Below, piece after piece: positions 1 to 26,250 of a DNA stretch of 32,000 nt. Position numbers and translations under genes: made by a program. The stretch comes from Cereibacter sphaeroides 2.4.1 (GTDB lineage Bacteria; Pseudomonadota; Alphaproteobacteria; Rhodobacterales; Rhodobacteraceae). Within the stretch, counting starts at the first letter, position 1. Each line of letters starts with the position of its first letter. The notes beneath the pieces were generated by a model. It ran no database searches, was not told the origin of the DNA, and saw only the letters and a list, made by a program, of their open reading frames with translations. The stretch spans positions 210,001 to 242,000 of the forward strand of contig NC_007493.2 in assembly GCF_000012905.2 (NCBI RefSeq). The letters are read 5' to 3'.

Positions 1-2
1 GG

Positions 3-1247: not shown

Positions 1248-2201
1248 ATGTTCCGCCGCACAACCCTGTCCGCGGCCGCGGCCGCTGCCGTGCTGAGCCT
1301 TCAGCCGCAAGTAGCCGCCGCGCAGGAATTCATCAACGTCCTGACCGGGGGCACCTCGGGCGTCTACTATCCGCTGGGCGTGGGCCTGTCCGAAATCTAT
1401 GCCGAGAACATCGAAGGCGCGCGCACCCAGGTGCAGGCGACGAAGGCCTCGGTCGAGAACCTGAACCTGCTCGCGCAGCGCAAGGGCGAACTTGCCTTCG
1501 CCCTGGGCGATTCGGTGACGCTCGCCTGGGAAGGCAACGAGGAGGCGGGCTTCCCGCGCCCGCTGAAGAACCTGCGCGCCATCGCGGCCATCTATCCGAA
1601 CTATATCCAGATCGTGGCCGACGCCGCCTCGGGTGTCACGACGCTCGAGGATCTGAAGGGCAAGACGCTCTCGGTCGGCGCGCCCGCCTCGGGCACCGAG
1701 CTCAATGCCCGCGCCATCTTCGGTGCGGCGGGCATGAGCTACGAGGATCTCGCCAAGGTCGAATACCTGCCCTATGCGGAATCGGCCGAGCTCATCAAGA
1801 ACCGGCAGCTGCAGGCGACGCTGCAATCCTCGGGTCTGGGCGTGGCCTTCATCAAGGACCTCTCCTCGACCCACGACATCAACCTCGTGAGCATTCCGGC
1901 CGAGGTGGTCGAGAAGATCGGCGCGCCCTATCAGCCCGCGGTGATCCCGGCCGGCACCTATTCCGGGCAGGACACGGACGTGCCCACGGCGGCGGTGGGG
2001 AACCTTCTCGTGACGCATGAGGATGTGAGCGAGGAAACCGCCTATCAGATGACGAAGCTGATGTTCGAGAACCTCGACCGGCTGAAGTCGGCCCATGCGG
2101 CGGCGGGCAACATCAAGCCCGAGACGGCCATCGAGGCGCTGCCGATCCCGCTGCATCCGGGCGCGGAGAAATACTACCGCGAGATCGGTCTGATCCAGTA
2201 A
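1248..2201 (+). CDS. TAXI-family TRAP transporter solute-binding receptor
   Basis: ATG at 1248 preceded by GGGAGG (1235-1240). Signal peptide MFRRTTLSAAAAAAVLSLQPQVAAAQE. TAXI-like motifs LTGGTSGVYYPLG, NLRAIAAIYPNYIQIV, HPGAEKYYRE. The track ORF start at 1104 is probably too far upstream. Confidence 0.85.
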   Translation: MFRRTTLSAAAAAAVLSLQPQVAAAQEFINVLTGGTSGVYYPLGVGLSEIYAENIEGARTQVQATKASVENLNLLAQRKGELAFALGDSVTLAWEGNEEAGFPRPLKNLRAIAAIYPNYIQIVADAASGVTTLEDLKGKTLSVGAPASGTELNARAIFGAAGMSYEDLAKVEYLPYAESAELIKNRQLQATLQSSGLGVAFIKDLSSTHDINLVSIPAEVVEKIGAPYQPAVIPAGTYSGQDTDVPTAAVGNLLVTHEDVSEETAYQMTKLMFENLDRLKSAHAAAGNIKPETAIEALPIPLHPGAEKYYREIGLIQ

Positions 2202-2214
2202 CGGCATCTGCCGC

Positions 2215-2238
2215 GGCCCGGGCGGCATCGCCCGGGCC
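2215..2238 (+). terminator. Intercistronic GC hairpin (possible attenuator) between the receptor and permease genes
   Basis: GGCCCGGG-cggcatcg-CCCGGGCC followed by CTTTCC. Lies 14 nt after the receptor stop codon. Confidence 0.35.
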
Positions 2239-2304
2239 CTTTCCCGTCGCTCCGGTTCGAGGCTCGGGCCTCGCCGTCGCGGCCCCGTCCTTTCGGAGAC
2301 AGCC

Positions 2305-4422
2305 ATGTCCGCACCCTCTGCCGCCCCCGGGCCGGCCTCTTCCGCCGTTCATGCCCCCGATGTCCACGAGGAAGTCACCGAGGGCCTGCCGCCCGGCTTC
2401 GGCCCCGGCATCATGGGCAAGGTGGCCTTCTGGATCGCCGTCGCCTTCTCGCTCTTCCAGCTCTGGACCGCGGGCTACGGCACCCTGCCGAGCCAGGTCG
2501 TGCGGGCGATGCATGTGGGCTTCCTGCTGCTTCTCGGCTTCGGCCTCGTGGGCAACCTCCTCGCCAGGACCGCGGTCACGCGGGCAATCTTCTGGGGGCT
2601 CGGGCTGATCGGCTTCGGCACCGGGATCTACAACTGGGTGCTCTACGAGGAGCTGATCCGGCGCACGGGCTTTCTCACCCATGCCGATCTCGTGGTGGGC
2701 ACCGTGCTCGTGGTGCTGGTGTTCGAGGCCAGCCGCCGGCTGATGGGATGGCCGCTCGCCATCATCGCGGGCCTCTTCCTCGCCTACTGCTTTCTCGGCC
2801 AGCACATGCCGCCGCCCTTCATCCACCGCGGCTACGATTTCGAGCAGATCGTCGAGCATTTCGCCTTCGGCACCGAGGGGATCTACGGCACGCCGATCTA
2901 TGTGAGCTCGGCCTATATCTTCATCTTCGTGGTCTTCGCGGCCTTCCTCGAACGGGCGGGGATGCTGAACCTCTTCAACGATTTCGCGCTCGGCCTCGTG
3001 GGCGGCGTGCGCGGCGGGCCTGCACAGGTGGCGGTGCTTTCCTCGGCGCTGATGGGGACGATCTCGGGCTCGGGCGTGGCCAATGTGGTGGCCTCGGGCC
3101 AGTTCACCATCCCGATGATGAAGCGCTTCGGCTTCAAGCCCGCTTTCGCGGGCGGGGTCGAGGCCACGGCCTCGATGGGCGGGCAGATCATGCCGCCGGT
3201 GATGGGGGCCGTGGCCTTCATCATGGCCGAGACGCTGAACGTGCCCTATGCCGCCGTCGTGCAGGCCGCGATCCTGCCGGCCGTGCTCTATTTCGGCGTG
3301 GTGTTCTGGATGGTCTGGCTTCAGGCCGGGCGCGACGGTCTGCGCGGCCTGCCGCGGTCGGAGCTGCCGAACCCGTGGCATGCGGTGCGCGACCAGTGGC
3401 CGCTGATCCTGCCTCTGGCGGCGCTCGTCTATCTGCTCTTCGCGGGCTACACGCCGATCTTCGCCGGCACGATGGGCCTCGCGCTGGTGGCCGTGCTGAT
3501 CCTCGGCACGCCGCTTGCTGCCATGATCGGGCCCATGGCCTTCCGGCTCGTCTTCTGGGTTGCGCTGGGTCTCGCCTCCGCCGCCTTCCTGAAGCTCGGC
3601 GTCAACTTCCTCGTGCTGGTGATCGGCCTTCTCGTGCTGGCCTGCGCCCTCTTCAAGGGCGCGCGCCCGACCATCGGCATCCTCCGCGATGCTCTGGCGC
3701 AGGGTGCGCGCAACGCGCTGCCGGTGGGCATCGCCTGCGCCATCGTGGGCATCGTCATCGGTACGCTGACGCTGACGGGCATCGCCTCGACCTTCATCGG
3801 CGCGATCATCGCCATCGGGCGGGACAACCTGTTCCTGTCGCTGGTCCTCACCATGATCACCTGCCTCGTCCTCGGCATGGGGATCCCGACCATCCCGAAC
3901 TATATCATCACCTCCTCGCTCGCGGGGCCGGCGCTTCTCGATCTCGGCGTGCCGCTTCTCGTGAGCCACATGTTCGTCTTCTACTTCGGCATCATGGCGG
4001 ACCTCACCCCGCCGGTGGCGCTGGCCTGTTTCGCGGCCGGTCCCATCGCCAAGGCGCCGGGGCTGAAGATCTCGCTGCAGGCGGTGCGTCTGGCGGCCGC
4101 GGGCTTCGTGATCCCCTTCATGGCGGTCTACACGCCGTCGCTCATGCTGCAGGACGGAGGCGCCATCGCCGAGACCTGGGGCTACCCGGTCGAGGTGGTC
4201 TATATCTTCCTCAAGGCGGTGCTGGCCATCGGCCTATGGGGCGTGGCGGTCGTGGGGCAGCTCTTCGGGCGGGCGACGATGCTCGAGCGGGCGCTTGCGC
4301 TGGCGGCCGGCGTGTCGCTGGTCCTTGCCCTTCCGGCGACGGACGAGGTGGGCTTCGCCCTCGCGGTGGCGACGCTGCTCCTGCACTGGCTGCGCGTGCG
4401 GCGCGCGGCGCGGGCCGCATGA
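2305..4422 (+). CDS. TRAP transporter fused 4TM/12TM permease (TAXI-associated type)
   Basis: 705-aa highly hydrophobic ORF. ATG at 2305 with GGAGAC 5 nt upstream. Directly downstream of the TAXI receptor gene. Its stop overlaps the next start (ATGA). Confidence 0.85.
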   Translation: MSAPSAAPGPASSAVHAPDVHEEVTEGLPPGFGPGIMGKVAFWIAVAFSLFQLWTAGYGTLPSQVVRAMHVGFLLLLGFGLVGNLLARTAVTRAIFWGLGLIGFGTGIYNWVLYEELIRRTGFLTHADLVVGTVLVVLVFEASRRLMGWPLAIIAGLFLAYCFLGQHMPPPFIHRGYDFEQIVEHFAFGTEGIYGTPIYVSSAYIFIFVVFAAFLERAGMLNLFNDFALGLVGGVRGGPAQVAVLSSALMGTISGSGVANVVASGQFTIPMMKRFGFKPAFAGGVEATASMGGQIMPPVMGAVAFIMAETLNVPYAAVVQAAILPAVLYFGVVFWMVWLQAGRDGLRGLPRSELPNPWHAVRDQWPLILPLAALVYLLFAGYTPIFAGTMGLALVAVLILGTPLAAMIGPMAFRLVFWVALGLASAAFLKLGVNFLVLVIGLLVLACALFKGARPTIGILRDALAQGARNALPVGIACAIVGIVIGTLTLTGIASTFIGAIIAIGRDNLFLSLVLTMITCLVLGMGIPTIPNYIITSSLAGPALLDLGVPLLVSHMFVFYFGIMADLTPPVALACFAAGPIAKAPGLKISLQAVRLAAAGFVIPFMAVYTPSLMLQDGGAIAETWGYPVEVVYIFLKAVLAIGLWGVAVVGQLFGRATMLERALALAAGVSLVLALPATDEVGFALAVATLLLHWLRVRRAARAA

Positions 4423-4787
4423 GCCTCTGCGTCGCGGCGGGGGCGGCGGTGCTGTCCCTCGCCGCCTCGAGCTTCACGCTGAGCTGGACGCATTCGGTCG
4501 AGCATGTGGAGTGGTGGGAACGCTGGGAGGTGACCGAGGCAGGCCTGCGCCCGGTCGAGGCCCGGATTCAAGGATCGGGGGCAGGGATGGAGCTTCCGCC
4601 CGATGCCTGGCGCGAGGCCGACGGCTGGCACTATGTGCCGCGCCTGCCGCCCCAGCGCGAGGTGCGGCTCGCGGCCTCGGGCATGACGGGCGGCGGCTGG
4701 CGGCTCTGCGCCGCCGGCCGGTGCCACGATCTGGGCGCCGCGGCGATCGAGGGGATCCGCCTCTGGCAGTCGGCGGACTGCGGCTGA
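4419..4787 (+). CDS. DUF1850-like small protein typical of TAXI-TRAP operons
   Basis: ATG 4419 overlaps the permease TGA (ATGA). Product MSLCVAAGAAVLSLAASSFTLSWTHSVEHVEWWERWEV..., 122 aa. Position and length match the DUF1850 partner of TAXI permeases. Confidence 0.7.
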   Translation: MSLCVAAGAAVLSLAASSFTLSWTHSVEHVEWWERWEVTEAGLRPVEARIQGSGAGMELPPDAWREADGWHYVPRLPPQREVRLAASGMTGGGWRLCAAGRCHDLGAAAIEGIRLWQSADCG

Positions 4788-4789
4788 AC

Positions 4790-5059
4790 CGGGCGCCCTC
4801 GCGGGGCCGCCTGATCCGCATGGCCCCGGCCCGGGCGATGATCGTCTTCGAGGTGAACCCGGCGCCCCTCGCCATCGCACTCGAACCGATGGCGCCCGAT
4901 GGGTCGATCCGACGCGATCGCTCGCGGTTTGCCCAGGTCCAGGGCCTTGCACACATCGGCCGCGGCGAACCACGGGTTGCCCTCGATCTCGACCACCCGC
5001 ACCGGATGGTCCTTGAAGTCGAACAGCGAGGGATTGAGCGGAGGCGTGGCTGGAGGTGG
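4790..5059 (-). pseudogene. Bro-N domain (phage antirepressor-type) remnant, frameshifted and 3'-truncated
   Basis: Minus strand reads LFDFKDHPVRVVEIEGNPWFAAADVCKALDLGK (5040->4920). After a frame change it reads KTIIARAGAMRIRRPREGARF, which parallels VMLISESGLNKLVMRPDKPEAKKF of the neighbouring intact copy. No ATG start. Similarity ends at ~4788, exactly at the DUF1850 stop. Confidence 0.55.
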
Positions 5060-5515
5060 TCAACAAGGCGCTCCTGAAGGGGCCCAGCGGGGGGTGACCT
5101 TCAGTTGTTTCCGATTCAACTGAAGGTCATCAGGCGGCGGGTCTTCGTTCAATCTGGTTAAAACAGAGGTATCTCCCTCGATCGGACCAACGCCCCCCGG
5201 CATCGTGTAGGTGCCCGTCTTGCGGATGCTCGGGAGAACCTCGCGGGTGACCCAATCTTGAAACTTCTTCGCCTCAGGTTTGTCCGGGCGCATGACCAGC
5301 TTGTTGAGGCCGCTTTCGCTGATGAGCATGACTTCCCGCGCGCCAGAACGGGAGACAACCTTCACTTGTATCCGATACAACTGAGCTTCATCGGAGGCCA
5401 ACTTGCGGGCCGCAACCGAAACGTTGGGCGTTTGGGTGCGGGGGCCGAGGTTGTAGCCGAGGGCGATCAGAACATCCCGCAGGATGAACCACGGGTTCCC
5501 CTCGAGCATCACCAC
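5060..5515 (-). CDS. Bro-N domain protein (prophage antirepressor family)
   Basis: GTG start. Motifs LEGNPWFILRDVLIALGY ... ISESGLNKLVMRPDKPEAKKFQDWVTREVLPSIRKTGTY match the Bro-N pattern. GC is lower than the flanks. The C-terminal 40 aa are of doubtful coding value because they contain a 31-nt palindrome. Confidence 0.65.
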   Translation of the reverse strand: MVMLEGNPWFILRDVLIALGYNLGPRTQTPNVSVAARKLASDEAQLYRIQVKVVSRSGAREVMLISESGLNKLVMRPDKPEAKKFQDWVTREVLPSIRKTGTYTMPGGVGPIEGDTSVLTRLNEDPPPDDLQLNRKQLKVTPRWAPSGAPC

Positions 5516-5727
5516 ACGGAGCGCGTGGGAGCCGAAGTGTAAGGTGGCCGTCTAGGGCTTCTCGGTGGCGGCTGCGGGCTGCACCGCGGCGGGAGCCGGG
5601 AGGGCCTTCGGGGGGGCGGTGGGCGGGCGTGACGGCGGCAACAATGGTCTGAAGCATTGGTCCGAGGCAATCAGACCCTATCCCCTAACCCTCGGAAACA
5701 TAGGAAAAATCGGTCTGTAGGAGGGAG

Positions 5728-5817
5728 TGGCGGAGACGAAGGGATTCGAACCCTCGAGACGGTTTCCCGCCTGCACCCTTAGCAGGGGTGTGCCTTCGAC
5801 CACTCGGCCACGTCTCC
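5728..5817 (-). tRNA. tRNA-Ser (anticodon GCU), type II with long variable arm, CCA encoded
   Basis: Reverse complement GGAGACGTGGCCGAGTGGTCGAAGGCACACCCCTGCTAAGGGTGCAGGCGGGAAACCGTCTCGAGGGTTCGAATCCCTTCGTCTCCGCCA. It has a 7-bp acceptor stem, anticodon loop CT-GCT-AA, a GGTTCGAATCC T-loop and a long extra arm. Confidence 0.93.
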
Positions 5818-6032
5818 GCCGACCCGTATAGGGGGCAAGGTTACGGAAAACAAGCGTCTTGTTGAGAGCCTGGGACCGCAGGCGCGTCGGCTCGCCTCGT
5901 CTGGATCTGGAGGTGCATCAGCGCAGAATCAGCAGTTGCCAGAGCGCGTTTTGACGGTCGCAGCCCGCGGCTCTTCTGACCGACAAGGCGGGCACCCTCT
6001 CAGATGTCGTCGTGGAATAAGCTGGGCGTCAG

Positions 6033-6230
6033 GTGCGCTCGATCCGCATTGGCTTCGTGACTGCCGTTCAGCATGCCGGCCTGACCCATGCCACCTCCCT
6101 TGTGCTGGGGCATACAGAAGCCGTTCACAATGAACGCAGCAGGCATCCCGATGCAAAGATCGCCAAGTTTCTCGGTTACTCAAGCTCGGCCATAACCGGG
6201 CGGACCTATGCCCGACGCTCGCCGAGCACC
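6033..6230 (+). pseudogene. Possible tyrosine-recombinase (integrase) C-terminal remnant
   Basis: AGLTHATSLVLGH...DAKIAKFLGYSSSAITGRTYARR resembles the box II region (HxLRHT...LGHSSxxxTxxY) of phage integrases. No intact upstream catalytic domain is present. Confidence 0.3.
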
Positions 6231-6364
6231 GGACCGATGGGAAGCACCCGGTTGTGGCCGCCTTCTGAGGCTTTGGTTCTTCGTCTGGCCAGCTGTCGTG
6301 ACTGACATCGTCTGTGGCGGATGGTGTTATGCGGCAAGAGAGTCTGGCGGGCATCAAGCGGTGA

Positions 6365-6690
6365 CGTCGCTGGTCGGATGCGGAGAAGCGGTCGATCCTG
6401 GCGGAGGTTGGTGTGAATGGGGCGTGGGTTGCAGATGTCGCCCGTCGTCATGACCTGACCCGGCAGCACATCTACCAGTGGCGGGCCGAGTTCCGGCGGC
6501 GGGGCGAAAGCCTGACGGAGGAGACCGGGTTCCTGCCGGTCGAGACGACATCCGAGAACTGCGTCCCGTCGGTTCCCGCGGCGACCATACCGGTCGAGGT
6601 CGTGCTCGTGAACGGCTGACGCCTGCGCGGGATCGAGGGTCTGTCGCCGGCCGCCTCGCGCAACTGATCCGTTTGCTGGAAGGCGCATGA
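6365..6690 (+). pseudogene. IS66-family accessory gene tnpA, disrupted (N-terminal stop and internal frameshift)
   Basis: RRWSDAEKRSILAEVGVNGAWVADVARRHDLTRQHIYQWRAEF is the typical IS66 TnpA HTH. A TGA sits directly upstream at 6362. The C-terminal LAQLIRLLEGA* is in another frame and ends in ATGA overlapping the tnpB start. Confidence 0.7.
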
Positions 6691-6749
6691 TCGGGCCTAG
6701 GAATGGCATGCGCGTGTTCCTCGCGGCAGGCACCTCGGACAGACCCTGA
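6687..6749 (+). pseudogene. IS66-family tnpB, N-terminal 20 codons only
   Basis: MIGPRNGMRVFLAAGTSD matches the conserved TnpB N-terminus (MIxxPxGxRVxLAxGxTD). It is then truncated at the junction with the IS5-type fragment. Confidence 0.55.
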
Positions 6750-7033
6750 TCAGCGGCACTCGCCGCGGGCTGACCCCGGCGCTGGCGAAGGCGCTCCGGC
6801 GGCGCAGCAGCATCGAGCCCGAGATCGGCCACATGAAGACCGACGGACGGCTCGTGCGCTGCTTTCTGAAAGGTGCACTCGGCGATGCGCTTTTCGCCGT
6901 CCTCTGCGGCTGCGGCCACAACATCCGCAAGATCCTCGCTCATCAACGGAGGCTTCTTGGAGCCGTCATCTCTATCGTCCTGGCGGTGCTCCGGAAGCAG
7001 CGAACCCAAGGTCACGGTCTTGCCGCGGCTTGA
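6740..7033 (+). pseudogene. IS5/IS1182-family DDE transposase, C-terminal fragment
   Basis: ISGTRRGLTPALAKALRRRSSIEPEIGHMKTDGRLVRCFLKGALGDALFAVLCGCGHNIRKIL is the conserved C-terminal signature of this family (RRRSxIEPxIGHxK...LKGxxGD). There is no N-terminal part. Confidence 0.7.
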
Positions 7034-7838
7034 TCGCGTTGTTCAGGCTGAACGAAGTAAGCCCTAAGAAGTCCTTGAATTTTAACGTATGTGATTGATC
7101 AACATAAGTGATTGATCCGTGTGGTGACCCCGGCAGGACCTCTGCAACCGCTGATTTTGCGGAGAAATTTCGGTAAATGGGTCTCCTCTAGCCCTGTGGG
7201 AGATCAATGACTTAAGGGGCGGGCTGTAAACGCCGGCTGGCCGCGGAGGCGCTGCGGCTTCGTCTGTTCCCCGTCCGCGCGTGCGCGCCGCTTGCCGGTC
7301 TTTCACCTCAGCCATATCCACTGGACTTCCAGATGGGTTGATCGGTCGCGGGAGGAGAAGACCCGCCTGTCCCAAGAGGTGCGTGCGCGCGAGAAGTGGA
7401 TCCGAGGTATTCCTCGGCACGCTTCAATATCGGGGGCGCACGCGAGCCGATCTGCCGGACGGCTGTTCCGGGCAGTTCGACTGGTCCTTCTACCGCTGGA
7501 TCAAAACACGCGGATCGCCAACCAAGCTCAGATCAAACGGCTTGTGGCTGGTGCGTCGAACGACAAGGTCATCTTCCGGCTGCGGAGCGCGAGCGAGGTC
7601 AGGATGTTCTTGGCGCGACTTGCTTTGAACTCAAGCACGCCCTCGTCCTGCCTGGAGCGCCCCTCGCGCTGAGGCGGTGAAGGTCTGAACCCAGGCCTTA
7701 TCAGCCCCTCGTAGTCAGCCCCAGGCCGACCTGCATGCCGAGGCGCGGAGGTACGAGATCAGCCCGAACCTGCCCATCACTATCATAGCGACTCGATGTC
7801 AAGCGCGCACGCGGTCCTGTACAGGCCGGTTCGGCCCC

Positions 7839-7868
7839 TTGAGAATCAAGCGGCTTCAAGACTACATA
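7839..7868 (+). promoter_or_regulatory. Putative sigma-70 promoter of the HD/NTase operon
   Basis: TTGAGA (7839-7844), 18-nt spacer, TACATA (7863-7868), ~48 nt upstream of the ATG at 7916. Confidence 0.25.
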
Positions 7869-7915
7869 AACAGTCTGAGACCTTCGGTGCTACATTATGT
7901 TGAGGTGCCTTGCAG

Positions 7916-9379
7916 ATGTCCGAGAGGAAGCCTACCCTGTGGTCGGAGAGTCGCCGTCCGCGTAAAGGTGAAGAAGAGGCTGGTGGCACTGAAGCTTCAG
8001 CTACCATTGATGAAGGCGACAAGCTTTCTTGGCGTTCTGTCTTCCAACGGGACTACGATCGACTTCTCTTCTCGACCCCGGTTCGCCGACTGTCTGACAA
8101 GACGCAGGTATGGCCGATGGACGAGAACGATGGCGTCCGTACGCGCCTGACCCACTCCCACGAAGTAGCTAACCTCGCCCGCTCCTTGGGGTCGAGGATT
8201 GCAACGCAGGAAGAGGGGTTGTTCAACGCTGACCTCCATCGCACGATTCAGCCAATTTTGTGGGCTATTGGCTTGGCGCACGACCTTGGGAACCCTCCGT
8301 TCGGGCACCAAGGTGAGGCTGCCATGGGGCGTTGGTTCAAGGATCGCGAAGCTTGGATATTCACACACGCTTCTGAAGAAGATGAAAAAGGTTTTGCTGA
8401 GCCGATACCTGAGAAACAGAGATTGGAGTTCACCAAGTTTGACGGAAACCCGCAAACTTTAAGACTTGTGACCCGGTTGCAAACTCATGCCCATGGCTTG
8501 GGCTTGGACCTCTCGGCAGCAACGCTCGCTGCCATGCTCAAATATCCTGTTTCTGCGGAGAACCGGAACAAGGACGTGCCTGCGCACAAGAAGGTTGGCT
8601 ACTTTGAAACCGAAAGAGATATTGTAAACTGGATTCGAGATGAGACAGGACTGAAGGAAGGGCAGCGACACCCTCTTACTTGGATCATGGAAGCGTGCGA
8701 CGATGTCGCTTACAGCATCTTGGATGTAGATGATGTGATGAAAAAAGGCATTGCCTCGCCTGAAGACATTCTGTCTCAGATGGGTGCCGAAGATCGTCTT
8801 AAAGATCATGCTTGCGTTGCGAAGATCAGAGAAGCTTTCAGGCGCGTGGATGAAGCAAAACACGGTGTGTTTGTGGCGCGCGATATCAAGATTGGTTACA
8901 TGAGGGCCTATTTGATGGAGGCGCTACTCGACGAAGCGGCTGCCAGCTTCATCGACAACGCAGCTGCCATTTTCGCTTTTGAAGGTGGGATGCTGCCAAT
9001 ATTGGAGGAGAGCGTCTTGTGCAATTTCCTCAAATCGGTTGCAAAGGATCACGCATTCTCCAATCCGGGAGTTTTGAAGTCGGAAGCAGTCGGCGCAGAA
9101 GCAATATCTCATATCATGTCCTTCTTCTGGGCTTCCATTAGAGATCGGGAGCACAATGACGACATCAAGTCGTGTCGCATGACCGCGGCATCAAAGTTTG
9201 CTTGGTCACTGGTAAGTCCGAACTACATCGAAGAGGCAGCGCGCTGCATTACAAAGCAGACGCCCCCGCAGCGGATCCGGTATGCTGAGATGCGCCTGCT
9301 TACTGACATGGTGTCTGGCATGACAGATTCTTTCGCAATGAAGCTCTGGGGTGACATTCGGGCGTTGCCGAAATGCTGA
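7916..9379 (+). CDS. dGTPase-family (Dgt-like) HD-domain deoxynucleoside triphosphate triphosphohydrolase
   Basis: ATG 7916 with GAGGTG 8 nt upstream (the track ORF starts at TTG 7910). Motifs FQRDYDRLLFSTPVRRLSDKTQV, RTRLTHSHEVANLARSLG, GLAHDLGNPPFGHQGE, ACDDVAYSILDVDD. Confidence 0.85.
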   Translation: MSERKPTLWSESRRPRKGEEEAGGTEASATIDEGDKLSWRSVFQRDYDRLLFSTPVRRLSDKTQVWPMDENDGVRTRLTHSHEVANLARSLGSRIATQEEGLFNADLHRTIQPILWAIGLAHDLGNPPFGHQGEAAMGRWFKDREAWIFTHASEEDEKGFAEPIPEKQRLEFTKFDGNPQTLRLVTRLQTHAHGLGLDLSAATLAAMLKYPVSAENRNKDVPAHKKVGYFETERDIVNWIRDETGLKEGQRHPLTWIMEACDDVAYSILDVDDVMKKGIASPEDILSQMGAEDRLKDHACVAKIREAFRRVDEAKHGVFVARDIKIGYMRAYLMEALLDEAAASFIDNAAAIFAFEGGMLPILEESVLCNFLKSVAKDHAFSNPGVLKSEAVGAEAISHIMSFFWASIRDREHNDDIKSCRMTAASKFAWSLVSPNYIEEAARCITKQTPPQRIRYAEMRLLTDMVSGMTDSFAMKLWGDIRALPKC

Positions 9380-10209
9380 TCGCTCGAGATGAAAGGATCC
9401 TCAAACGCAGAGTGGACGATTATCTATGGCGAGATAGGTCGAAGACTGTGCTGGCGCTTCGGCAGGTGCTAGTTGAAAAGTTTGGAGATTTCGAAAAAGT
9501 ATCGATTTTTGGCGGCATGATCCGCGACATCGCGCGCAATGGAAAGCGTGGATTTCGATCAGACGTTGATCTTGTTATTGACGCACCCGCTGCTGAGGTG
9601 AAGGACTTGGCTGACAGGTTGGCAGCAAAGCCGAACTTATTTGGCGGATTTGGGTACCGTACTGCGCGTTGGGAAATCGACTTTTGGGCTCTCGAGACCT
9701 CTTGGGCGCATAAGCATGGTCACATTAACGCCTCCTCTGTTGATGATCTGATGGAAGGGACATTCTTCGACTGGGATGCTGCGCATTATGATCTTAAGAG
9801 CCGTAAGCTTTACTTTCAGTCGGGATATTTGGAGAGGATCCGCAGCAGAACACTTGGCGTCAATCTTGTTGAAACGCCAAGTGCTGTGGGCAACGCCGTG
9901 CGCGCAGTGAGGCGTGTGTTGCTCTGGGATCTAAGAGCTTCTCCATGTCTTCTGGATTTCGTTGAGCATGTGGTGTCTAACGAGGGACTAGAGACGCTTT
10001 CGCGCTATGAAAAGCGAAAGCACCAAAGGTCCGTGTGCGAAGCTTACGTCGAGAGAAGCAGGTTGCTCGAAGCCCTTGCTGCAGGCAACAATAAAGTATA
10101 CTTTCTTCGCGGATCGCCAAGGCAGCTGGAGTTGCCGGGGATTTTCCTCTCCTCCACTCCGCGAGGATTAGCTAACAATTCGGAGCATCGGGCGAGTGCC
10201 CGCCTCTGA
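9373..10209 (+). CDS. Truncated CCA-adding/poly(A)-polymerase-family (Pol-beta fold) nucleotidyltransferase, head and neck only
   Basis: Start overlaps the upstream stop (ATGCTGA). IFGGMIRDIA...SDVDLVID matches GGxxRD...DxD. FFDWDAAHYDL and GNAVRAVRRV align with the RDFTxNA and DPLRxLRAxRF motifs. At 278 aa there are no body or tail domains. Confidence 0.65.
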   Translation: MLIARDERILKRRVDDYLWRDRSKTVLALRQVLVEKFGDFEKVSIFGGMIRDIARNGKRGFRSDVDLVIDAPAAEVKDLADRLAAKPNLFGGFGYRTARWEIDFWALETSWAHKHGHINASSVDDLMEGTFFDWDAAHYDLKSRKLYFQSGYLERIRSRTLGVNLVETPSAVGNAVRAVRRVLLWDLRASPCLLDFVEHVVSNEGLETLSRYEKRKHQRSVCEAYVERSRLLEALAAGNNKVYFLRGSPRQLELPGIFLSSTPRGLANNSEHRASARL

Positions 10210-11244
10210 GGCATAAGGATAAAAGCGGTCAAACTCTTCACTATAGATTTGCGTTATCGACTTTATATCTTCGCCGCTTAATCCGAGCTCTTGCCGCATG
10301 GCTTTAATGATGGTTGGTAGAACCGTTGGTCGATCATGCTCGAAGTCAAGGTTTGCCGGCTCTCTTGTCTTCCATCCGCGCGTGGCGATTTGCTGCCAGA
10401 GATATCGCGCCTGATTTGGCGTAATAATCTTCTCGCGCTGGATGGCGTAAAGAATGCCTTGCATTGAAACTCGCCATTCGGGTTTCAGTGCTGCTAGGAG
10501 CGCCAATGTAACCTTCCTTCCGCGAAGCGCGTCGTTAAGTTCTTTTCTCGGCAAAAGAAAGTTCGACGCAAAGAGGTTTGCTTCCTCTTCCATGTTTGGT
10601 GTCGGGAACCTGTGCATCACCAAGTGCCCTAGCTCGTGAGCAAGGGTGAAACGTACACGATCCGCCGGATGCGAAGGGTTAAGTAGGACGAGGGGTGGTC
10701 GTCCAGGTACGGCAAAAGTAACACCACTGACATTGGCGCCCCCGAAGTCAGAGTAGCCGACGACTACACCTGCTCGCTCGACAAGTCTGGTCAAGTTCTT
10801 GATTGGTCCCGATGGAATTTTCCAATGTCGCCGCAGTAGATCTGCAATATCCGCTGGAGAGCCGTATTGCTCCAGGTCGAAACGTCGGAGATCTAGAGAT
10901 GGCTTTAAGTCCATTTCCTCTAGGAAGCGGCGCAGATTAAACATGCGAACATTAAGCTCCGCCGTGATCATATCCAATTCGCGCGCAGTTACGTCAGAAT
11001 GCCCCCGCAGCATTGGATGAATGCTGACGGGCGGCCCGTAAACTGTATCGGGAAGGTCGAAGAATCCAGGAGGAAGATTAAAGGCTCTTGATGCCACCCG
11101 TATGCACTCATCGTCAACTTCGACAAGATCATTTTCCATACGAGAATATACGGCCTGAGCAACGCCTAGTTGCTCCGCCGTCTTTTTCTGCGTAAGTCCT
11201 CTGAGATGCCGCGCCAATCGCAGCATGTTTCCACGAGTAGCCAT
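10168..11244 (-). CDS. XRE-family HTH fused to an ImmA/IrrE (COG2856) zinc metallopeptidase
   Basis: N-terminal LRLARHLRGLTQKKTAEQLGVAQAVYSRMEND (HTH_3-like). Central RFTLAHELGHLVMH (HEXXH) followed by EEEANLFASNFLLP. 358 aa. Start lies 3 nt after the upstream stop. Confidence 0.8.
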   Translation of the reverse strand: MATRGNMLRLARHLRGLTQKKTAEQLGVAQAVYSRMENDLVEVDDECIRVASRAFNLPPGFFDLPDTVYGPPVSIHPMLRGHSDVTARELDMITAELNVRMFNLRRFLEEMDLKPSLDLRRFDLEQYGSPADIADLLRRHWKIPSGPIKNLTRLVERAGVVVGYSDFGGANVSGVTFAVPGRPPLVLLNPSHPADRVRFTLAHELGHLVMHRFPTPNMEEEANLFASNFLLPRKELNDALRGRKVTLALLAALKPEWRVSMQGILYAIQREKIITPNQARYLWQQIATRGWKTREPANLDFEHDRPTVLPTIIKAMRQELGLSGEDIKSITQIYSEEFDRFYPYASEAGTRPMLRIVS

Positions 11245-11247
11245 TAC

Positions 11248-11892
11248 TTAGTTGCCGTTGCTGTCAGAGGTGTCGTCGTCGCGCTGACGTTTGCGGAGAA
11301 CAACTAGTTCTTCGCTTGCTTCAGCCGCATCTTCCAGCGGCTCGGTCGACATCGGGAGGAGAGTAATGCCAGTGCCACTAGACGTGCTAGCAGCGCTCGG
11401 GACAATCTCATAGTGCCAAAGTAGCTCGTCACCGTCACGTGCTGCAACAACAACCCGCTCTATGCGGTCCTCGATCTCATTAGCGGTATAGAGCACTTCC
11501 ACCTTGGTGGCACTGGGAGGCATGCCCGGCAACTCGCTTTGAATGCTCACAAAATCCAAGACTGCTTGCGTGGGGTGATTGCGGCCCAGATTGTCTTCAT
11601 CACCCTTTTTAAACCGCGCTAGCACCACGTCCTTGAAGCAAAACTTTACTGTCTGCGCATTGGGATAAACCCGCACCTCTGGATCGGCGCTGAATTCGGT
11701 AATGGCATGTCGAGCGATAGCGTCAAAGACGTAGTTAGCGGTCGTTCGCGGATAAAGAACTGGCCCAGTACCACTCGATGCCATGCTGCGCTTAATAGAT
11801 GCCCACTCGCCGTAACCTTGCTCTATGACGCGCAGGATACGATCATGGTACGGGTTCAAGTGCTCCCTAACCTCATCTTCACCGTACTGCAC
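11248..11892 (-). CDS. Hypothetical protein (214 aa), first gene of the ImmA-fusion operon; acidic, serine-rich C-terminal tail
   Basis: GTG start with AGGAAG 6 nt upstream and a near-consensus promoter further upstream. No motif I can recognise. Same low-GC composition as its partner. Confidence 0.6.
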   Translation of the reverse strand: MQYGEDEVREHLNPYHDRILRVIEQGYGEWASIKRSMASSGTGPVLYPRTTANYVFDAIARHAITEFSADPEVRVYPNAQTVKFCFKDVVLARFKKGDEDNLGRNHPTQAVLDFVSIQSELPGMPPSATKVEVLYTANEIEDRIERVVVAARDGDELLWHYEIVPSAASTSSGTGITLLPMSTEPLEDAAEASEELVVLRKRQRDDDTSDSNGN

Positions 11893-11924
11893 GTGCTTCT
11901 TCCTATTACTGATGGATCTAGGTC

Positions 11925-11953
11925 ATCATAGGTGCCGCGTTTTGCAAATTCAA
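11925..11953 (-). promoter_or_regulatory. Near-consensus sigma-70 promoter driving the 214-aa/ImmA operon
   Basis: On the minus strand: TTGAAT, 17-nt spacer, TATGAT. The -10 element ends ~32 nt upstream of the GTG at 11892. Confidence 0.5.
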
Positions 11954-12073
11954 GATAAATTATTCAGTTCGTATTCTGACGCGTCCGGCTTGGGAGCTAC
12001 GCAAGCCAGATGAGACGTGCTGCTGTACCGAGCGTCACGTCCGCAACATGTGCATGGCGGTCCTAGGGGCGTG

Positions 12074-12094
12074 GCCCGTGACAGCACCACGGGC
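12074..12094 (-). terminator. Hairpin just downstream of the last prophage gene (weak terminator candidate, no U-tract)
   Basis: GCCCGTG-acagcac-CACGGGC, 12 nt beyond the stop at 12106. Confidence 0.25.
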
Positions 12095-12105
12095 ACGCGC
12101 CATGC

Positions 12106-12588
12106 TCAGAACTCAGCCGCCTGGGCAAGCCTGGACCGGACCAGCACATCGAGCGTGTCCGCCGGCGGGGCCAGCTGCTGCAACGCATCCGGTACAGAGT
12201 TCCGGACATAGCTCGAAACAAACTGGGTCGCCGCATCAGGGGCAAGCTTCCGGGCTACCGCCACCCGCGCGGCGGTCATGATCGCCGAATGCAGCGCCTC
12301 GCGATGCCGTGCCTCGATCTGGATCCCGGTCCAACGCTGGAAGCGGACGGTCGCGAGCCCGATCAGCGCCGTCAGGATCACGCCCGCCAGATCTAGGAGG
12401 CTGGGCGTCAGCGCGGTCAGAAGGTCGCTGCCGGTCGAGGCAGCTGCGGGCACGGCGAGCGCGGCGAGGATCGAGGCCGAGATCGTCGAAGCGGCCAGCC
12501 GCGCCAGAGCAGCGACCAGCGGCCAGCCGATGAGCAATATGAAGGCGAACGCGCAGAGGGCGAGGGCAAGGATGAAGATCAGGGACAT
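12106..12588 (-). CDS. Membrane protein downstream of the endolysin (possible holin or lysis accessory protein)
   Basis: AGGAGA RBS 5 nt upstream. N-terminal half has ~3 hydrophobic helices (SLIFILALALCAFAFILLIGWPLVAAL...). C-terminal half is soluble. Confidence 0.6.
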   Translation of the reverse strand: MSLIFILALALCAFAFILLIGWPLVAALARLAASTISASILAALAVPAAASTGSDLLTALTPSLLDLAGVILTALIGLATVRFQRWTGIQIEARHREALHSAIMTAARVAVARKLAPDAATQFVSSYVRNSVPDALQQLAPPADTLDVLVRSRLAQAAEF

Positions 12589-12600
12589 GGGTTCTCTCCT

Positions 12601-13410
12601 TCAGAGGCGGGCGAACTGGAAGTGCATCCAGTCGCGGTTGCAGGCGCGGCCGAGGCTCGTGGCGCCGGCGGCTTCGACGATGGTCCAGAAGGGCTCATAG
12701 GCGGGTGCGGCGAAGCTCGCCCGGTCGCGGCCCCAGCGGAGCGGGTTGCGCTCGGGGTCGAGGTCCACGGCGATGCCCCAGGCATGCATCGAGAGGGCGG
12801 AGCCGCCGCGCATGGGCCGGTGGTTGAAGCAGCCGCCGAAGAGGTTCAGCCGCAGCCGCTCGAACTGGACGGCGCCGTAGTGCGCCACCGCCTCGCGGAA
12901 GATCCGCGCCATCGGTGCGACCACGAGCTTGTGGCAGCGGAAGCTCGTGATGCTCGTGCCGGGATCCCAGGCGAGGCGGAACGGGATCGGCAGCTCGACG
13001 ATCCCCGCGGTGCAGTCGGGGCCGCCCGCGACGCCGTAGAAGGTCGCGACAGACTCCTGCCGCGGATAGGCGCCCTGGGCATCGGCCACGCCATGGCCCG
13101 GCAGCGGCAGCCGCTCGACGGTCGCTCGCACCGGCCCGGAGGCCCAGGCGGTCAGCGCCTCGCGGGTGTTGGGCCCGAGGAGCCCGTCGATCCGGCCCGG
13201 CGCATGGCCGAGCCGCGCCAGCACCGCCTGGCCGGCCGCGATCCGCTGCCGGCGGAAAGGCCAGGTGCGCCAGGGCACCGCCTCTCCCTCGAGCGCCGCC
13301 TGTGCGGCCGCCTGGGTCAGCGGCCCCGCGTCGCCGTCGATGGCGCCGCGGTAGAGCTCCGCGGCTGCGAGCAGCCGCTGGATGTCGGATGTCGTCACGT
13401 CTTTCTCCAT
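12601..13410 (-). CDS. Endolysin: peptidoglycan-binding repeats plus M15-family peptidase
   Basis: Two PG_binding-like segments (LYRGAIDGDAGPLTQAA; GHAPGRIDGLLGPNTREAL). The C-terminus has SMHAWGIAVDLD ... NRDWMHFQ, typical M15 zinc ligands. The ATG at 13410 is preferred over the track TTG at 13416 because a terminator hairpin abuts it. Confidence 0.8.
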   Translation of the reverse strand: MEKDVTTSDIQRLLAAAELYRGAIDGDAGPLTQAAAQAALEGEAVPWRTWPFRRQRIAAGQAVLARLGHAPGRIDGLLGPNTREALTAWASGPVRATVERLPLPGHGVADAQGAYPRQESVATFYGVAGGPDCTAGIVELPIPFRLAWDPGTSITSFRCHKLVVAPMARIFREAVAHYGAVQFERLRLNLFGGCFNHRPMRGGSALSMHAWGIAVDLDPERNPLRWGRDRASFAAPAYEPFWTIVEAAGATSLGRACNRDWMHFQFARL

Positions 13411-13414
13411 ATGC

Positions 13415-13438
13415 AAAAGCCCCGCACGAGGGCGGGGC
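13415..13438 (-). terminator. Rho-independent terminator after the methylase gene
   Basis: Minus strand GCCCCGC-cctcgt-GCGGGGC followed by TTTTG. Confidence 0.5.
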
Positions 13439-13463
13439 GTGGGTGGTCGGACCGGTGTGGTTT

Positions 13464-14270
13464 TCAGAGCAGGGTCGCGATCCGCTCGCGGTTCGAGACG
13501 AGGAGCTCCTGCGCCTCGGTGCTGCCCGAGGCGGCGACCGAGTAGCTCAGCCGCACCGGCTCGAGGTGGAACCGACCGAAGAGCGCCCGGATCTCCGGCG
13601 TGTCATTGATCGACAGGAGGAAGGCGCCCTTCAGGCCGCCGAGGATCTCGGCGATCCGCGCGAACTGCGCCCGGTCGAAGATCCCGCGGCCGTAGTCGTT
13701 CTCGCCGCCGAAGTAGGGTGGGTCGAGATAGAACAGCGTCTCGGCCGTATCGTAGCGCGGGATCAGCTCGGCCCAGTCGAGGCACTCGAAGACGACGCCA
13801 TCGAGCCTCGTGCGGGCGGCGTCGAGGAGCGGCTCGAGGCGGGCGAGCGAGAAGAGCGGCCCGTTCCCAGGCGAAATGCCGAAGCTGCCGTTTGGCTTGC
13901 CGCCGAAGCTCAGCCGCTGGAGGTAGAGGAACCGCGCGGCCCGCTCGAGGTCGGTCAGCGTGGCGGGATCCGTCACGCGCAGCCGATCGAACTCGCGCCG
14001 GCTGCAAATCTGGAAGCGCATGATCTCCAGGAGCTGGGGGTAATGCCGCTGCAGGATCCGGAAGAGGTTGATGATCTCGCCGTTGCGGTCGTTCATGACC
14101 TCGAGGCGGGGCCGGAAGCGGCGGCGGAGGAAGATCCCGCCCATGCCGACGAAGGGCTCGACATAGGCGCGGTGCGGGATGGCCTCGATCCGCTCGAGGA
14201 TGAGCGGGTGGAGACGTTTCTTGCCGCCGAGCCACGGGGCGACCGGGGCGGCGGGAGGTACTTGTTTCAT
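13464..14270 (-). CDS. Orphan Dam-like (D12 class) N6-adenine DNA methyltransferase
   Basis: PWLGGKKRL near the N-terminus, EPFVGMGG (AdoMet site), FYLDPPY catalytic motif. No adjacent endonuclease gene. Alternative GTG start at 14288. Confidence 0.85.
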   Translation of the reverse strand: MKQVPPAAPVAPWLGGKKRLHPLILERIEAIPHRAYVEPFVGMGGIFLRRRFRPRLEVMNDRNGEIINLFRILQRHYPQLLEIMRFQICSRREFDRLRVTDPATLTDLERAARFLYLQRLSFGGKPNGSFGISPGNGPLFSLARLEPLLDAARTRLDGVVFECLDWAELIPRYDTAETLFYLDPPYFGGENDYGRGIFDRAQFARIAEILGGLKGAFLLSINDTPEIRALFGRFHLEPVRLSYSVAASGSTEAQELLVSNRERIATLL

Positions 14271-14671
14271 AAGGTGATTCTGCCTCACAAGGCGCCTGCC
14301 CTCGCGAGGGGTGGCAGGCAGTCTGAAAGGCGACGGACAGGCTGGCGCGGTCGGAGGTGGTACTTTGGCCGCGTGGTTCGGGCTGTTACACCAGCCCGGC
14401 CCCTGCCTGAGGGGCGCTACGGGCGCCCCGAGGAAGGGGCGTTCCGGATCTCGATTGTTGAGGCCGTAGACCCCATGTGGGAAATGCTACGGCAGAGCCT
14501 TGGCGTCCGCAGCTCGACTTCCAGCGTCACATTCCCATGCGACCAAAGGCCAAAGCCTCGTGGTCCGCATGGGTGCTGCTTGATGAGCGCATCAGGGAGT
14601 GCCACAAGGGCAAGATGCGCGTGCGGTGAAGGCTCCGATAATTACAGCAGATCAGTTGAGAAGGAACTCAA

Positions 14672-15670
14672 ATGGACCTCGATGATCTATACCGCCTTCT
14701 GCGTGTATCGCACGTGCAGGCTCAGGGCATCGTCGATACCATCCGGGACCCGCTGCTCGTCCTCGCAGGCGATCTGACGGTCATCAGCGCGAACCCGGCC
14801 TTCTACCGGACCTTTGCGACCGACCGGGACAGCACCATCGGCCGCCCGCTCTACGACCTCGGTAACGGCCAGTGGAACATTCCCGAACTGCGCATGCTGC
14901 TCGAGAACGTGATCCCGAAAAGCGCTTCTATCATGGATTTCGAGGTGCAGGCAGGATTTCCGGAGGTGGGCCTGCGGACCATGCTGATCAGCGCGCAACG
15001 CCTGATCCACCCGGACAATGGGCAGCGTGTCCTCCTCCTCTCGATGGTGGATGCGACGGCCCGGCGTCAGATGGAGGCCGCGAAGGACATCCTGATCAAC
15101 GAGCTCGATCACCGCATCAAGAACCTGATGTCGGTGACACAGGCTCTGACCCGACAGACGGCCGTCGAAGGCAGAAGTGCCGGCGAATATCGCACCGCGC
15201 TCCTCGGACGGTTCGATGCTCTGGCGCGATCACTCGAAGTGGCGTCGCACAAGCAGTCGTCGCAGCTGCGGGACCTGGCCGTCGCCGTGATGGAGCCATA
15301 TCTGGAGGCGGCATCCGCCGTTGTCATCGCGGAAGGGCCGGCCGTCCGGCTCTCCCCTTCGCAGGCCACCCCGCTTGGCCTCGTTCTTCACGAGCTGGGG
15401 ACGAATGCCACAAAGTACGGAGCCCTGTCCACGTCGAGTGGAACCGTGACACTGGACTGGAAGGTCGTCTCGGACGGGGAAGGCCGGAAAAAAGTGCATT
15501 TGCGATGGCAGGAACGAGGGGGGCCGAAGGTGGCGGCACCCTCGAAGACCGGCTTCGGCACCCGTCTCATCAAATTTACCACCGAATTCGAACTGCGAGG
15601 TTCCGCGGAACTTTCCTATGAGCCTGATGGTTTCGTGGCGAAGTTGAGCTTTCCGAGCCAGAACCCCTGA
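14672..15670 (+). CDS. Soluble PAS-domain HWE/HisKA_2-type histidine kinase
   Basis: AAGGAA RBS. PAS-like N-terminus (IRDPLLVLAGDLTVISANPAFYRTF). H-box ELDHRIKNLMSV. N-box HELGTNATKYGAL. WQERGGP...GFGTRLI. No transmembrane segment. Confidence 0.85.
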   Translation: MDLDDLYRLLRVSHVQAQGIVDTIRDPLLVLAGDLTVISANPAFYRTFATDRDSTIGRPLYDLGNGQWNIPELRMLLENVIPKSASIMDFEVQAGFPEVGLRTMLISAQRLIHPDNGQRVLLLSMVDATARRQMEAAKDILINELDHRIKNLMSVTQALTRQTAVEGRSAGEYRTALLGRFDALARSLEVASHKQSSQLRDLAVAVMEPYLEAASAVVIAEGPAVRLSPSQATPLGLVLHELGTNATKYGALSTSSGTVTLDWKVVSDGEGRKKVHLRWQERGGPKVAAPSKTGFGTRLIKFTTEFELRGSAELSYEPDGFVAKLSFPSQNP

Positions 15671-15682
15671 CCCGAGTATACC

Positions 15683-16072
15683 ATGCCGAACGAGCCGGCC
15701 GAGCCTCGTCCGAAGCAGGGCCTGCTCGTCCTTGTTGTCGAGGACGAATTCCTGACCGCCATCGACCTGCAGTCGATGCTGGAGGATGTGGGCTACGCCG
15801 TACTCGGGCCGGTTGGCACGGTTGATGACGCGCTCAGGATCCTGGACGAGACGCGCCCGGACGTGGTGTCGCTCGATCTAAACTTGCGAGGGCAATCCTC
15901 CATTCCGGTGGCCGAGAAACTCCGCGAGCTCGAGGTTCCGTTTATCGTCACTTCAGCCTACAGGACCTTCGACTTTCCCGGCGGCGAGATTCTGACTGGC
16001 GTCACAGCGATCGGGAAGCCCGTCCACCCGCGCATGCTGATCGAGGCCCTGAGCCAGGCGTGCGGATCATGA
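15683..16072 (+). CDS. Single-domain response regulator (receiver only)
   Basis: VLVVEDEFL, DVVSLDLNL (phospho-acceptor Asp region), FIVTSAY, GKP. 129 aa with no output domain. Confidence 0.8.
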   Translation: MPNEPAEPRPKQGLLVLVVEDEFLTAIDLQSMLEDVGYAVLGPVGTVDDALRILDETRPDVVSLDLNLRGQSSIPVAEKLRELEVPFIVTSAYRTFDFPGGEILTGVTAIGKPVHPRMLIEALSQACGS

Positions 16073-16142
16073 TCGACGGAGCCGCTGCAGGGAGGCCTTT
16101 GTCCGATCCCGAGCGGCACCCTGCTCGCTTCAATATCGTCGC

Positions 16143-16460
16143 TCACCCCGCGCTCCGTCCTCGCCAGAGCCGCTCCAGCATCGCCGTCGTCCCGCGCGGG
16201 CCGAGATAGGCCAGCATAGCCACGAGGCCCATCGCCGCGCGGCCGTCGAGGTCGAGATACGAACTTAGGGCCTCGCCGATGAAGGCCATGGCGACGAGGG
16301 CGGGGATCTCCCAGAGGAGTTCGCGGCCGAAGAAGGCGCGGCGGCGGGCGCGGACCTCGCCGGTGTGATACATGAGCCGGCCCATGGCGGCCGCGATCAG
16401 CGTGGCGATGGCCCCGCCCCAGAGCGCCGTGATGGTGTCGATCAGTCCCTTTTCCGGCAT
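16143..16460 (-). CDS. Putative phage holin (small protein with three transmembrane segments)
   Basis: 105 aa with hydrophobic segments ITALWGGAIATLIAAAMG, LLWEIPALVAMAFIGEAL, AAMGLVAMLAYLG and a basic C-terminus. Sits at the end of the tail module. Confidence 0.5.
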   Translation of the reverse strand: MPEKGLIDTITALWGGAIATLIAAAMGRLMYHTGEVRARRRAFFGRELLWEIPALVAMAFIGEALSSYLDLDGRAAMGLVAMLAYLGPRGTTAMLERLWRGRSAG

Positions 16461-16593
16461 CGCGCCGCTCCTGTTGTGCGCGCGTCGCGCGGGTCTCGTC
16501 CCGGCCGGGGGCGGCCGGGTCCTGTCATGATGATCGGGAAGGCGGGGGCGCCTCAGGCGGCCGACTGCTTGACGCGCGCCTGCTCGATGAGAC

Positions 16594-16932: not shown

Positions 16933-16935
16933 GGA

Positions 16936-17253: not shown

Positions 17254-17259
17254 GGCGGA

Positions 17260-18744: not shown

Positions 18745-18760
18745 GGGGAGGTTCCTTGCG

Positions 18761-26247: not shown

Positions 26248-26250
26248 GGG

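Follow-up and report, generated by a model that had tools for sequence, protein, structure and literature searches.

The chromosome of Cereibacter sphaeroides 2.4.1 carries, within the 32,000-nucleotide stretch of DNA analysed here as the window (contig NC_007493.2, positions 210,001 to 242,000 of the forward strand), a dGTPase-family gene that runs directly into a gene for a nucleotidyltransferase (NTase), and the question raised by this locus is whether the two genes form one functional unit and, if so, of which kind. We conclude, with a probability of roughly 0.87, that the pair is a Clover-type anti-phage system, with cloA as its first and cloB as its second gene, carried as a moron by a prophage. 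Membership of the pair in the Clover family, taken by itself, is very likely and slightly more secure than this combined reading. That the ligands are exactly thymidine triphosphate (dTTP) and the dinucleotide p3diT is probable by analogy, and is rated below membership because three contact residues of the p3diT pocket are substituted. The two proteins are homologous to CloA and CloB, the catalytic residues and most of the ligand-contact residues are kept, the order and coupling of the genes are the same, and the setting is mobile. The pair is already covered by the published Clover family and is a diverged copy, not a new kind of system.

Clover was described by Yamaguchi et al. (bioRxiv 2025.07.09.663793; PMC12265719) from Salmonella enterica SA20044414 and from Escherichia coli H5, a study cited as 2026 in a review of that year (PMC13434031). 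As cited in PMC12265719, Nicastro et al. had flagged the architecture in 2023. The novelty implied by an earlier reading of the window, hereafter the preliminary description, is therefore lost, the architecture having been flagged in 2023 and its mechanism solved in 2025 and reviewed in 2026. In the published system, the dGTPase CloA has no activity by itself and is activated by dTTP, which is raised when T5-like phages remodel the deoxynucleoside triphosphate (dNTP) pool; the product of CloB, a polymerase beta (Pol-beta) NTase, is p3diT, which binds the CloA dimer interface and suppresses CloA (PMC12265719). Active-site mutants of CloB are toxic in a CloA-dependent manner, and HD mutants of CloA lose defence (PMC12265719). 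More than 650 Clover operons have been reported from proteobacteria, Bacillus, Clostridia and Myxococcia, among which an alphaproteobacterial operon from Methylobacterium is displayed as a representative, and a distantly related CloB from Xanthomonas also makes p3diT (PMC12265719).

By analogy with these characterised orthologues, from which the dTTP trigger, the p3diT brake and the depletion of deoxyguanosine triphosphate (dGTP) would be carried over, the CloA of the window would be a dGTP-specific triphosphohydrolase that is inactive by itself. CloB would act as a template-independent Pol-beta NTase that constitutively joins two molecules of dTTP into p3diT (5'-triphosphothymidyl-3'5'-thymidine), and p3diT at the CloA dimer interface would lock the enzyme off and leave the host protected. 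Upon phage remodelling of the dNTP pool, dTTP would rise and enter an adjacent, mutually exclusive allosteric pocket, where its binding would complete the CloA active site, so that dGTP would be destroyed and phage DNA replication would stall. One alternative offered by the preliminary description, gating of the hydrolase by the NTase, is in essence this published mechanism, in which p3diT made by CloB inhibits CloA (PMC12265719).

In the window, cloA occupies positions 7916 to 9379 of the forward strand and encodes, from its ATG, a 487-residue HD triphosphohydrolase of the dGTPase family, the effector. It is followed at 9373 to 10209, also on the forward strand, by cloB, which encodes the regulator, an NTase of 278 residues with a Pol-beta fold. 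The ATG at 7916 was taken as the start of cloA in preference to an in-frame TTG at 7910, because a Shine-Dalgarno-like GAGG read from the sequence (7902 to 7905, forward strand) is spaced 10 nucleotides 5' of it and because the alignment with a Paenirhodobacter homologue begins at residue 1 of the ATG form. Both genes were borne out as first described in the list of open reading frames (ORFs) and at the junction, AAATGCTGA, where the cloB ATG lies inside ATGCTGA (9373 to 9379, forward strand) and shares these 7 nucleotides with the cloA stop. From this overlap we infer translational coupling, which would keep the toxic effector from being made without its restrainer. All of the motifs quoted in the preliminary description were found, namely RDYDRLLFSTPVRRLSDKTQV, RTRLTHSHEV, HDLGNPPFGH and DDVAYSILDVDD in CloA and FGGMIRDIA...SDVDLVID, FFDWDAAHYDL and AVRAVRRV in CloB, with the correction that the spacer between FGGMIRDIA and SDVDLVID has 8 residues (RNGKRGFR) and not 11.

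The assignment of the first gene to the dGTPase family held. Its product matches Pfam HD, passes NCBIfam TIGR01353 for the dGTP triphosphohydrolase subfamily with 291 bits (cut-off 152) and matches the PADLOC dGTPase model with an E-value of 3e-68. It stays below the cut-offs of the housekeeping Dgt equivalogs (PRK04926, 268 versus 405; PRK01096, 312 versus 439) and of NF041026, the model for single-gene anti-phage dGTPases (185.6 bits versus 400). The pattern of NCBIfam matches is the same for Salmonella CloA, and neither protein passes an equivalog. In a sequence search of the PDB, the top matches were 9p8s-9p8v (E 8e-89, 291-302 bits), octameric entries of eight chains each that carry the name 'dNTP triphosphohydrolase', followed at a distance by E. 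coli Dgt (158 bits) and 9p8w (87 bits). We take 9p8s-9p8v as Salmonella CloA (SeCloA), since their numbering, offset by 2, gives every residue named in the Clover paper (T25, R29, R34, R38, H117/D118, H126/E129) and the sequence rebuilt from their alignment shows 99% identity with P0121 of Salmonella enterica. Entry 9p8w is taken to be SpdGTPase from its co-deposition with the CloA entries and its name, 'dGTPase-like protein'. The window CloA is 37% identical to CloA of E. coli H5 (E 4e-102) and 30% identical to E. coli Dgt.

Residues were mapped on an alignment of Salmonella CloA, the window CloA, 22 relatives and E. coli Dgt. The catalytic H80, H122, D123, D262, H131 and E134 of the window CloA correspond to Salmonella H69, H117, D118, D242, H126 and E129, and the metal-site and catalytic-dyad (H/E) residues are invariant in the 22 related loci. 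Seven of the nine dTTP-pocket contacts are identical (R58, D72, Q189, K276, S434, N436 and T470, equivalent to Salmonella R47, D61, Q172, K256, S418, N420 and T449). Of the other two, Y452, the stacking residue whose Ala mutant is inactive (PMC12265719), is replaced by F473 with the aromatic ring kept, and A444, a main-chain contact, by M465. The conservation of this site is informative because E. coli Dgt has other residues at four of the kept positions, D61, Q172, K256 and N420. The p3diT pocket retains seven of its ten contacts (R40, R45, D48, R49, F52, N86 and R330 for Salmonella R29, R34, D37, R38, F41, N75 and R314), and R29, R34, D37, F41 and N75 likewise differ in E. coli Dgt.

The Salmonella contig has, after P0121, an ORF of 277 amino acids that overlaps it and has no Pfam match; this is the reference CloB, and its D71/D73 in SDIDLV are the catalytic pair mutated in the Clover paper (PMC12265719). 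The window CloB is 31% identical to this protein by BLASTP (E 6e-27) and 32% identical to CloB of E. coli H5 (E 6e-27), and alignment of its family profile with the Salmonella protein by hhalign extends over 231 columns with 99.8% probability (E 2.7e-29). Residues D64/D66 of the window protein align with D71/D73 of the Salmonella protein, and the third aspartate, D103, is invariant, in keeping with the [DE]h[DE]...h[DE]h active site of Clover NTases. The full set of CloB positions that do not vary between the window clade, Salmonella, Phaeobacter and Bacillus comprises G47, G48, R51, D52, F61, D64, D66, N88, G91, G92, D103, W105, W111, A112, D135, L165, P169, R177 and L193. A search of 5.8 billion proteins returned 239 homologues of the window CloB from Alpha-, Beta- and Gammaproteobacteria, 250-280 residues long and with no Pfam domain, and every one of them with a source name is a 'hypothetical protein'. 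Their alignment shows GG..RD, SDxD, the third Asp, FFDxD and R..R as invariant, and the CloB family as a whole amounts to 1366 clusters at 50% identity (E<=1e-3).

The family models are silent on this protein, as nothing in the Pfam, NCBIfam, PADLOC and PHROGs scans rose above threshold. The preliminary description had called it a truncated NTase of the CCA-adding or poly(A) polymerase type and had named failure in the PolyA_pol models as evidence against itself, and the match to Pfam PolyA_pol (PF01743) is indeed below threshold, at 13.8 bits (E 0.076) for a gathering score of 23. This miss bears solely on where the family is filed and not on its fold, and it is at the level of the fold, head plus neck, that the description stands. 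The AlphaFold2 (AF2) model of CloB has a mean predicted local distance difference test score (pLDDT) of 87.2, with the C-terminal residues 243-278 disordered, and its best PDB matches in Foldseek are class II CCA-, CC- and A-adding enzymes and bacterial poly(A) polymerase, with E-values from 9e-8 to 1e-4 and template modelling (TM) scores of 0.40-0.53 on the query. The alignments cover about 190-250 columns of targets of 340-460 residues and include the head and neck solely, so that CloB is, as modelled, a class II head and neck without body or tail. Sequence searches of the PDB gave no match at E<=10 with the single CloB sequence and, with the family profile, a best E-value of 0.28, for a CCA-adding enzyme; the PDB appears to contain no structure of a CloB. 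In class II CCA enzymes, motif D (EDxxR) templates the incoming nucleotide. The GNAVRAVRR helix of CloB may correspond to this motif, with N174 and R177 in that role for dTTP.

The preliminary description also held that the pairing is obligate and distinct from single-gene dGTPase defence, and allowed that a pair confined to this genome would count against it. A genome scan, with one genome taken per species, gave 22 loci encoding a CloB homologue from three proteobacterial classes, and in all 22 the dGTPase lies upstream, the tblastn match to the window dGTPase ending where the NTase starts or no more than a few bases away. Identity across these loci is 44-84% in the dGTPase and 33-76% in the NTase. 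On plasmids of Phaeobacter and Bacillus, more distant homologues of the NTase likewise lie directly 3' of an annotated dGTP triphosphohydrolase gene, and the same order on the same strand is seen in Salmonella and E. coli H5. Overlaps of 4 to 26 nucleotides occur at most of the 22 loci, with the 7-nucleotide junction of the window recurring in Paenirhodobacter, and the Salmonella genes overlap by 47 nucleotides; sphingomonad loci have abutting GTG starts, and small gaps are confined to the most distant plasmid examples. The pairing of dGTPase and NTase is far beyond chance, and it plainly extends outside this genome. In RefSeq, pairs of this kind bear the names 'dGTPase family protein | hypothetical protein'. 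Among 140 neighbouring ORFs from the 22 loci, defence genes were found at several loci (IetA, CBASS effectors, GajB, DrmD, DRT, CARF and TnsB), a set that agrees with a defence-island or mobile setting.

Two further observations concern Clover loci elsewhere. A near-full-length operon of the Salmonella type is present in 8 of 5426 complete E. coli genomes. A gene cluster directly adjoins cloAB at five of the 24 Clover loci, those of Salmonella, E. coli H5, Lampropedia, Sphingobium and Sphingomonas, which span three proteobacterial classes. It is made up of an ORF of about 110 amino acids, a fusion of a PfkB kinase with a nucleoside 2-deoxyribosyltransferase, a QueC-like gene, an uncharacterised protein of about 224 amino acids and an OGG-type glycosylase, with a Dam-like methylase added in the enterics. 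This cluster was located at 489-4671 of L023, 1-2616 of L031, 9221-12810 of L012, 2393-5982 of L015 and 9376-13023 of L016, and its position and orientation vary among the loci. A survey of the QueC family from 2026 notes the pairing of QueC with PfkB, and the word dGTPase is absent from it (PMC13329287). It could be a defence system that travels together with Clover, or an add-on concerned with guanine nucleotides.

Several findings weigh against the assignment to Clover or against its carrying over in full. The similarity to tested proteins is modest, at 37-39% identity for CloA and 31-32% for CloB, and a promoter and terminator scan of 7300-12200 found signals no commoner than in shuffled sequences. 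In the p3diT pocket, T25 is replaced by K36, N181 by D198 and Q311, which in Salmonella CloA reads the first thymine of p3diT (PMC12265719), by G327, so that, judged from the alignment, the ligand or its affinity could differ. Of the 22 related loci, 21 have Q or H at the R34 position, the octamer-interface stacking residue H263 of Salmonella CloA is E in the window CloA and D in most relatives, and the window clade has an insertion of about 13 residues after the HD motif.

Some of these points would fit an alternative in which the alpha- and betaproteobacterial clade keeps the logic of effector and restrainer and uses a different chemistry, with another inhibitory (di)nucleotide, another activator or another threshold. 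Such a divergence would draw on the substituted base-reading and phosphate contacts, on the changed R34 position and on the low identity of CloB to the tested enzymes. It is unlikely, given that conservation extends to seven of the ten p3diT contacts and to nearly all of the dTTP pocket, residues specific to Clover included, that the distant Xanthomonas CloB still makes p3diT and that the Methylobacterium operon is displayed as a representative Clover (PMC12265719).

A second alternative, taken in its widest form from the proposal in the preliminary description of an effector that modifies RNA 3' ends, is that the NTase is such an effector, for example one that tails tRNA as CCA-adding enzymes do, or a toxin of the MenT or AbiEii kind, with the HD enzyme as antidote or processor of its substrate. 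The nearest folds, tRNA CCA- and A-adding enzymes and poly(A) polymerase, and the weak PolyA_pol match lend this some colour, yet the body and tail domains that bind RNA are missing, and the product matched no toxin NTase model of the MenT/AbiEii kind in Pfam or PADLOC at E<=0.1. The tested homologue makes a deoxy-dinucleotide and is protective; it is the inactivation of CloB, and not its activity, that is toxic, through CloA, and mutation of the HD motif abolishes defence. Both the lack of RNA-binding domains and the phenotype of the CloB mutants thus contradict an RNA-tailing toxin, which we regard as highly improbable.

Least probable of all is that an ordinary housekeeping dgt stands by chance beside an unrelated hypothetical ORF, for although the first gene matches generic dGTPase models and RefSeq labels such pairs in just these terms, this is rejected by synteny (adjacency in 22 of 22 loci over three proteobacterial classes and also in Bacillus, with the overlap conserved), by composition (an islet of 52% GC within a prophage in a genome of 70% GC) and by model cut-offs (scores below every housekeeping equivalog and 30% identity to E. 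coli Dgt).

The Clover reading also fits the setting of the pair. Composition profiles delimit an islet of low guanine-plus-cytosine (GC) content at 7750 to 12100, about 50-55% compared with some 70% for the genome, which holds cloAB and a convergent two-gene module. The GC content at third codon positions (GC3) is 0.51-0.58 in the four islet genes and about 0.9 in the flanking genes. The islet is hosted by the late region of a prophage, recognised in Pfam and PHROGs scans at 12106 to 31952 on the reverse strand, with an endolysin at 12601-13416, a Dam methylase at 13464-14288 and a tape measure gene at 19651-24672, all on the reverse strand, and with genes for the major tail protein, connectors, major capsid, protease and portal out to 31952. 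The Clover operon is a moron-type insertion at the lysis-proximal end of this siphovirus-like prophage. Carriage by sequenced free phages is unsupported, since tblastn of CloB against 50,697 phage genomes found no match.

The left edge of the mobile region is marked by a tRNA-Ser(GCT) gene (5728 to 5817, reverse strand; ARAGORN and Rfam), the likely integration site and the only element found in an Rfam scan of the whole window. Positions 1-4400 are chromosomal, with genes for a sigma-54 activator and for a TRAP transporter, and on the chromosomal side of the tRNA gene lie two ORFs with Bro-N domains, at 4631-5002 and 5060-5515 on the reverse strand. On the prophage side, a fragment of an IS3-type transposase (6413-6619; Pfam HTH_Tnp_1) is accompanied by other decayed ORFs in the region to 7100. 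Because no integrase gene is visible between the tRNA gene and the prophage late genes, the left end of the mobile element looks eroded or composite. A search for repeats flanking the islet (5600-12700) gave only short matches at chance level. Upstream of the islet, a non-coding tandem duplication of 17 nucleotides is present at 7084-7117 (AACGTATGTGATTGATC / AACATAAGTGATTGATC). Within the late region, a gene for a PAS and HWE histidine kinase lies on the forward strand at 14672-15670, opposite to and between the Dam methylase and the tail genes; its GC3 of 0.76 is somewhat below that of the surrounding phage genes, and it may be another moron. Between this gene and the tape-measure region, a 514-residue ORF (17260-18804, reverse strand) with high GC3 and no Pfam match presumably encodes a distal tail or host-recognition protein.

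The convergent module of the islet is not part of Clover. One member (10168 to 11244, reverse strand) encodes a helix-turn-helix (HTH) and M78 peptidase protein (Pfam HTH_3 and Peptidase_M78) that matches the PADLOC models for RmrA of RosmerTA over its full length with an E-value of 4e-52, and its 3' end overlaps the 3' end of cloB by 42 nucleotides. It begins 4 nucleotides after the gene upstream of it (11248 to 11892, reverse strand), a candidate toxin partner of 214 amino acids that matches phrog_15813, a family of unknown function, has 171 homologues and has no Pfam, PADLOC (including RmrT) or NCBIfam match and no PDB fold match. On this basis, the genes at 10168-11892 may form a RosmerTA-like pair whose toxin belongs to no recognised family. 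The four-gene convergent cassette recurs on metagenome contigs L027-L029 with about 80% identity, the HTH-M78 pair is found without Clover in Inquilinus (L030), next to genes resembling those of a type IV secretion system (T4SS), and it is not present at the other Clover loci of the 22-locus set. Since each occurs without the other, Clover and the HTH-M78 pair are read as two separate modules in one islet, and functional coupling of the two beyond adjacency is a possibility weaker still than the different chemistry considered above.

For annotation, the locus has practical consequences. No Pfam, NCBIfam (June 2026) or PADLOC 2.0 model recognises the CloB of the window or the reference CloB proteins of Salmonella and E. 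coli H5, and because CloB is also a 'hypothetical protein' in RefSeq, Clover operons are invisible to standard annotation. A seed set for a CloB model is offered by G47, G48, R51, D52, D64, D66, N88, G91, G92, D103, W105, W111, D135, P169 and R177. The residue map shows natural variation in the p3diT pocket of the window clade, and if the signal were other than p3diT, or the activation threshold different, this clade would be a biochemical variant of Clover. The preliminary description demonstrates that the letters of a sequence alone can be enough to recognise a genuine defence architecture and to propose a plausible logic for its regulation.

Among enzymes of related fold, class II CCA- and A-adding enzymes and poly(A) polymerase share with CloB the GGxxRD...DxD signature and a motif D-like xxAVRAVRR helix. 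CloB differs from them in its predicted lack of body and tail, and so presumably of tRNA binding, and the product of the characterised CloB is a free deoxy-dinucleotide, whereas these enzymes extend RNA 3' ends. Housekeeping E. coli Dgt (PRK04926; PDB 4x9e/6oiy) belongs to the same TIGR01353 family as the window CloA and has the same catalytic residues, but lacks the Clover-specific allosteric residues that are present in the window protein (D61, Q172, K256, N420, R29, D37, F41 and N75). The single-gene anti-phage dGTPase, which reportedly defends through dGTP depletion (Tal et al., 2022), shares the HD dGTPase fold and active site with the window CloA in its Shewanella form, SpdGTPase (NF041026), but the window CloA fails NF041026 and is always paired with an NTase. 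The single-gene enzyme is constitutively active and hexameric and has no NTase partner (PMC12265719). In Hailong (HalB, oligo-dA) and Panoptes (2'3'-c-di-AMP), a constitutive NTase product also restrains a toxic effector until infection relieves it (PMC12265719); these systems use other NTase families, signals and effectors, and the likeness to Clover is one of logic, with no claim of homology.

The closest match remains Clover of Salmonella and E. coli H5, with which the window pair shares the two-gene order, the overlapping genes, homology over the full length of CloA and CloB and location on a mobile element. It differs in having K36, D198 and G327, F in place of Y452, no H263 and an insertion of about 13 amino acids after the HD motif. 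The window operon has a Rosmer-like pair next to it in a prophage at tRNA-Ser, whereas the enterobacterial islands lie at tRNA-Sec beside the PfkB/QueC/OGG/Dam cluster. With this locus, Clover, which was described in 2025 from enterobacteria, gains an alphaproteobacterial example carried by a prophage.

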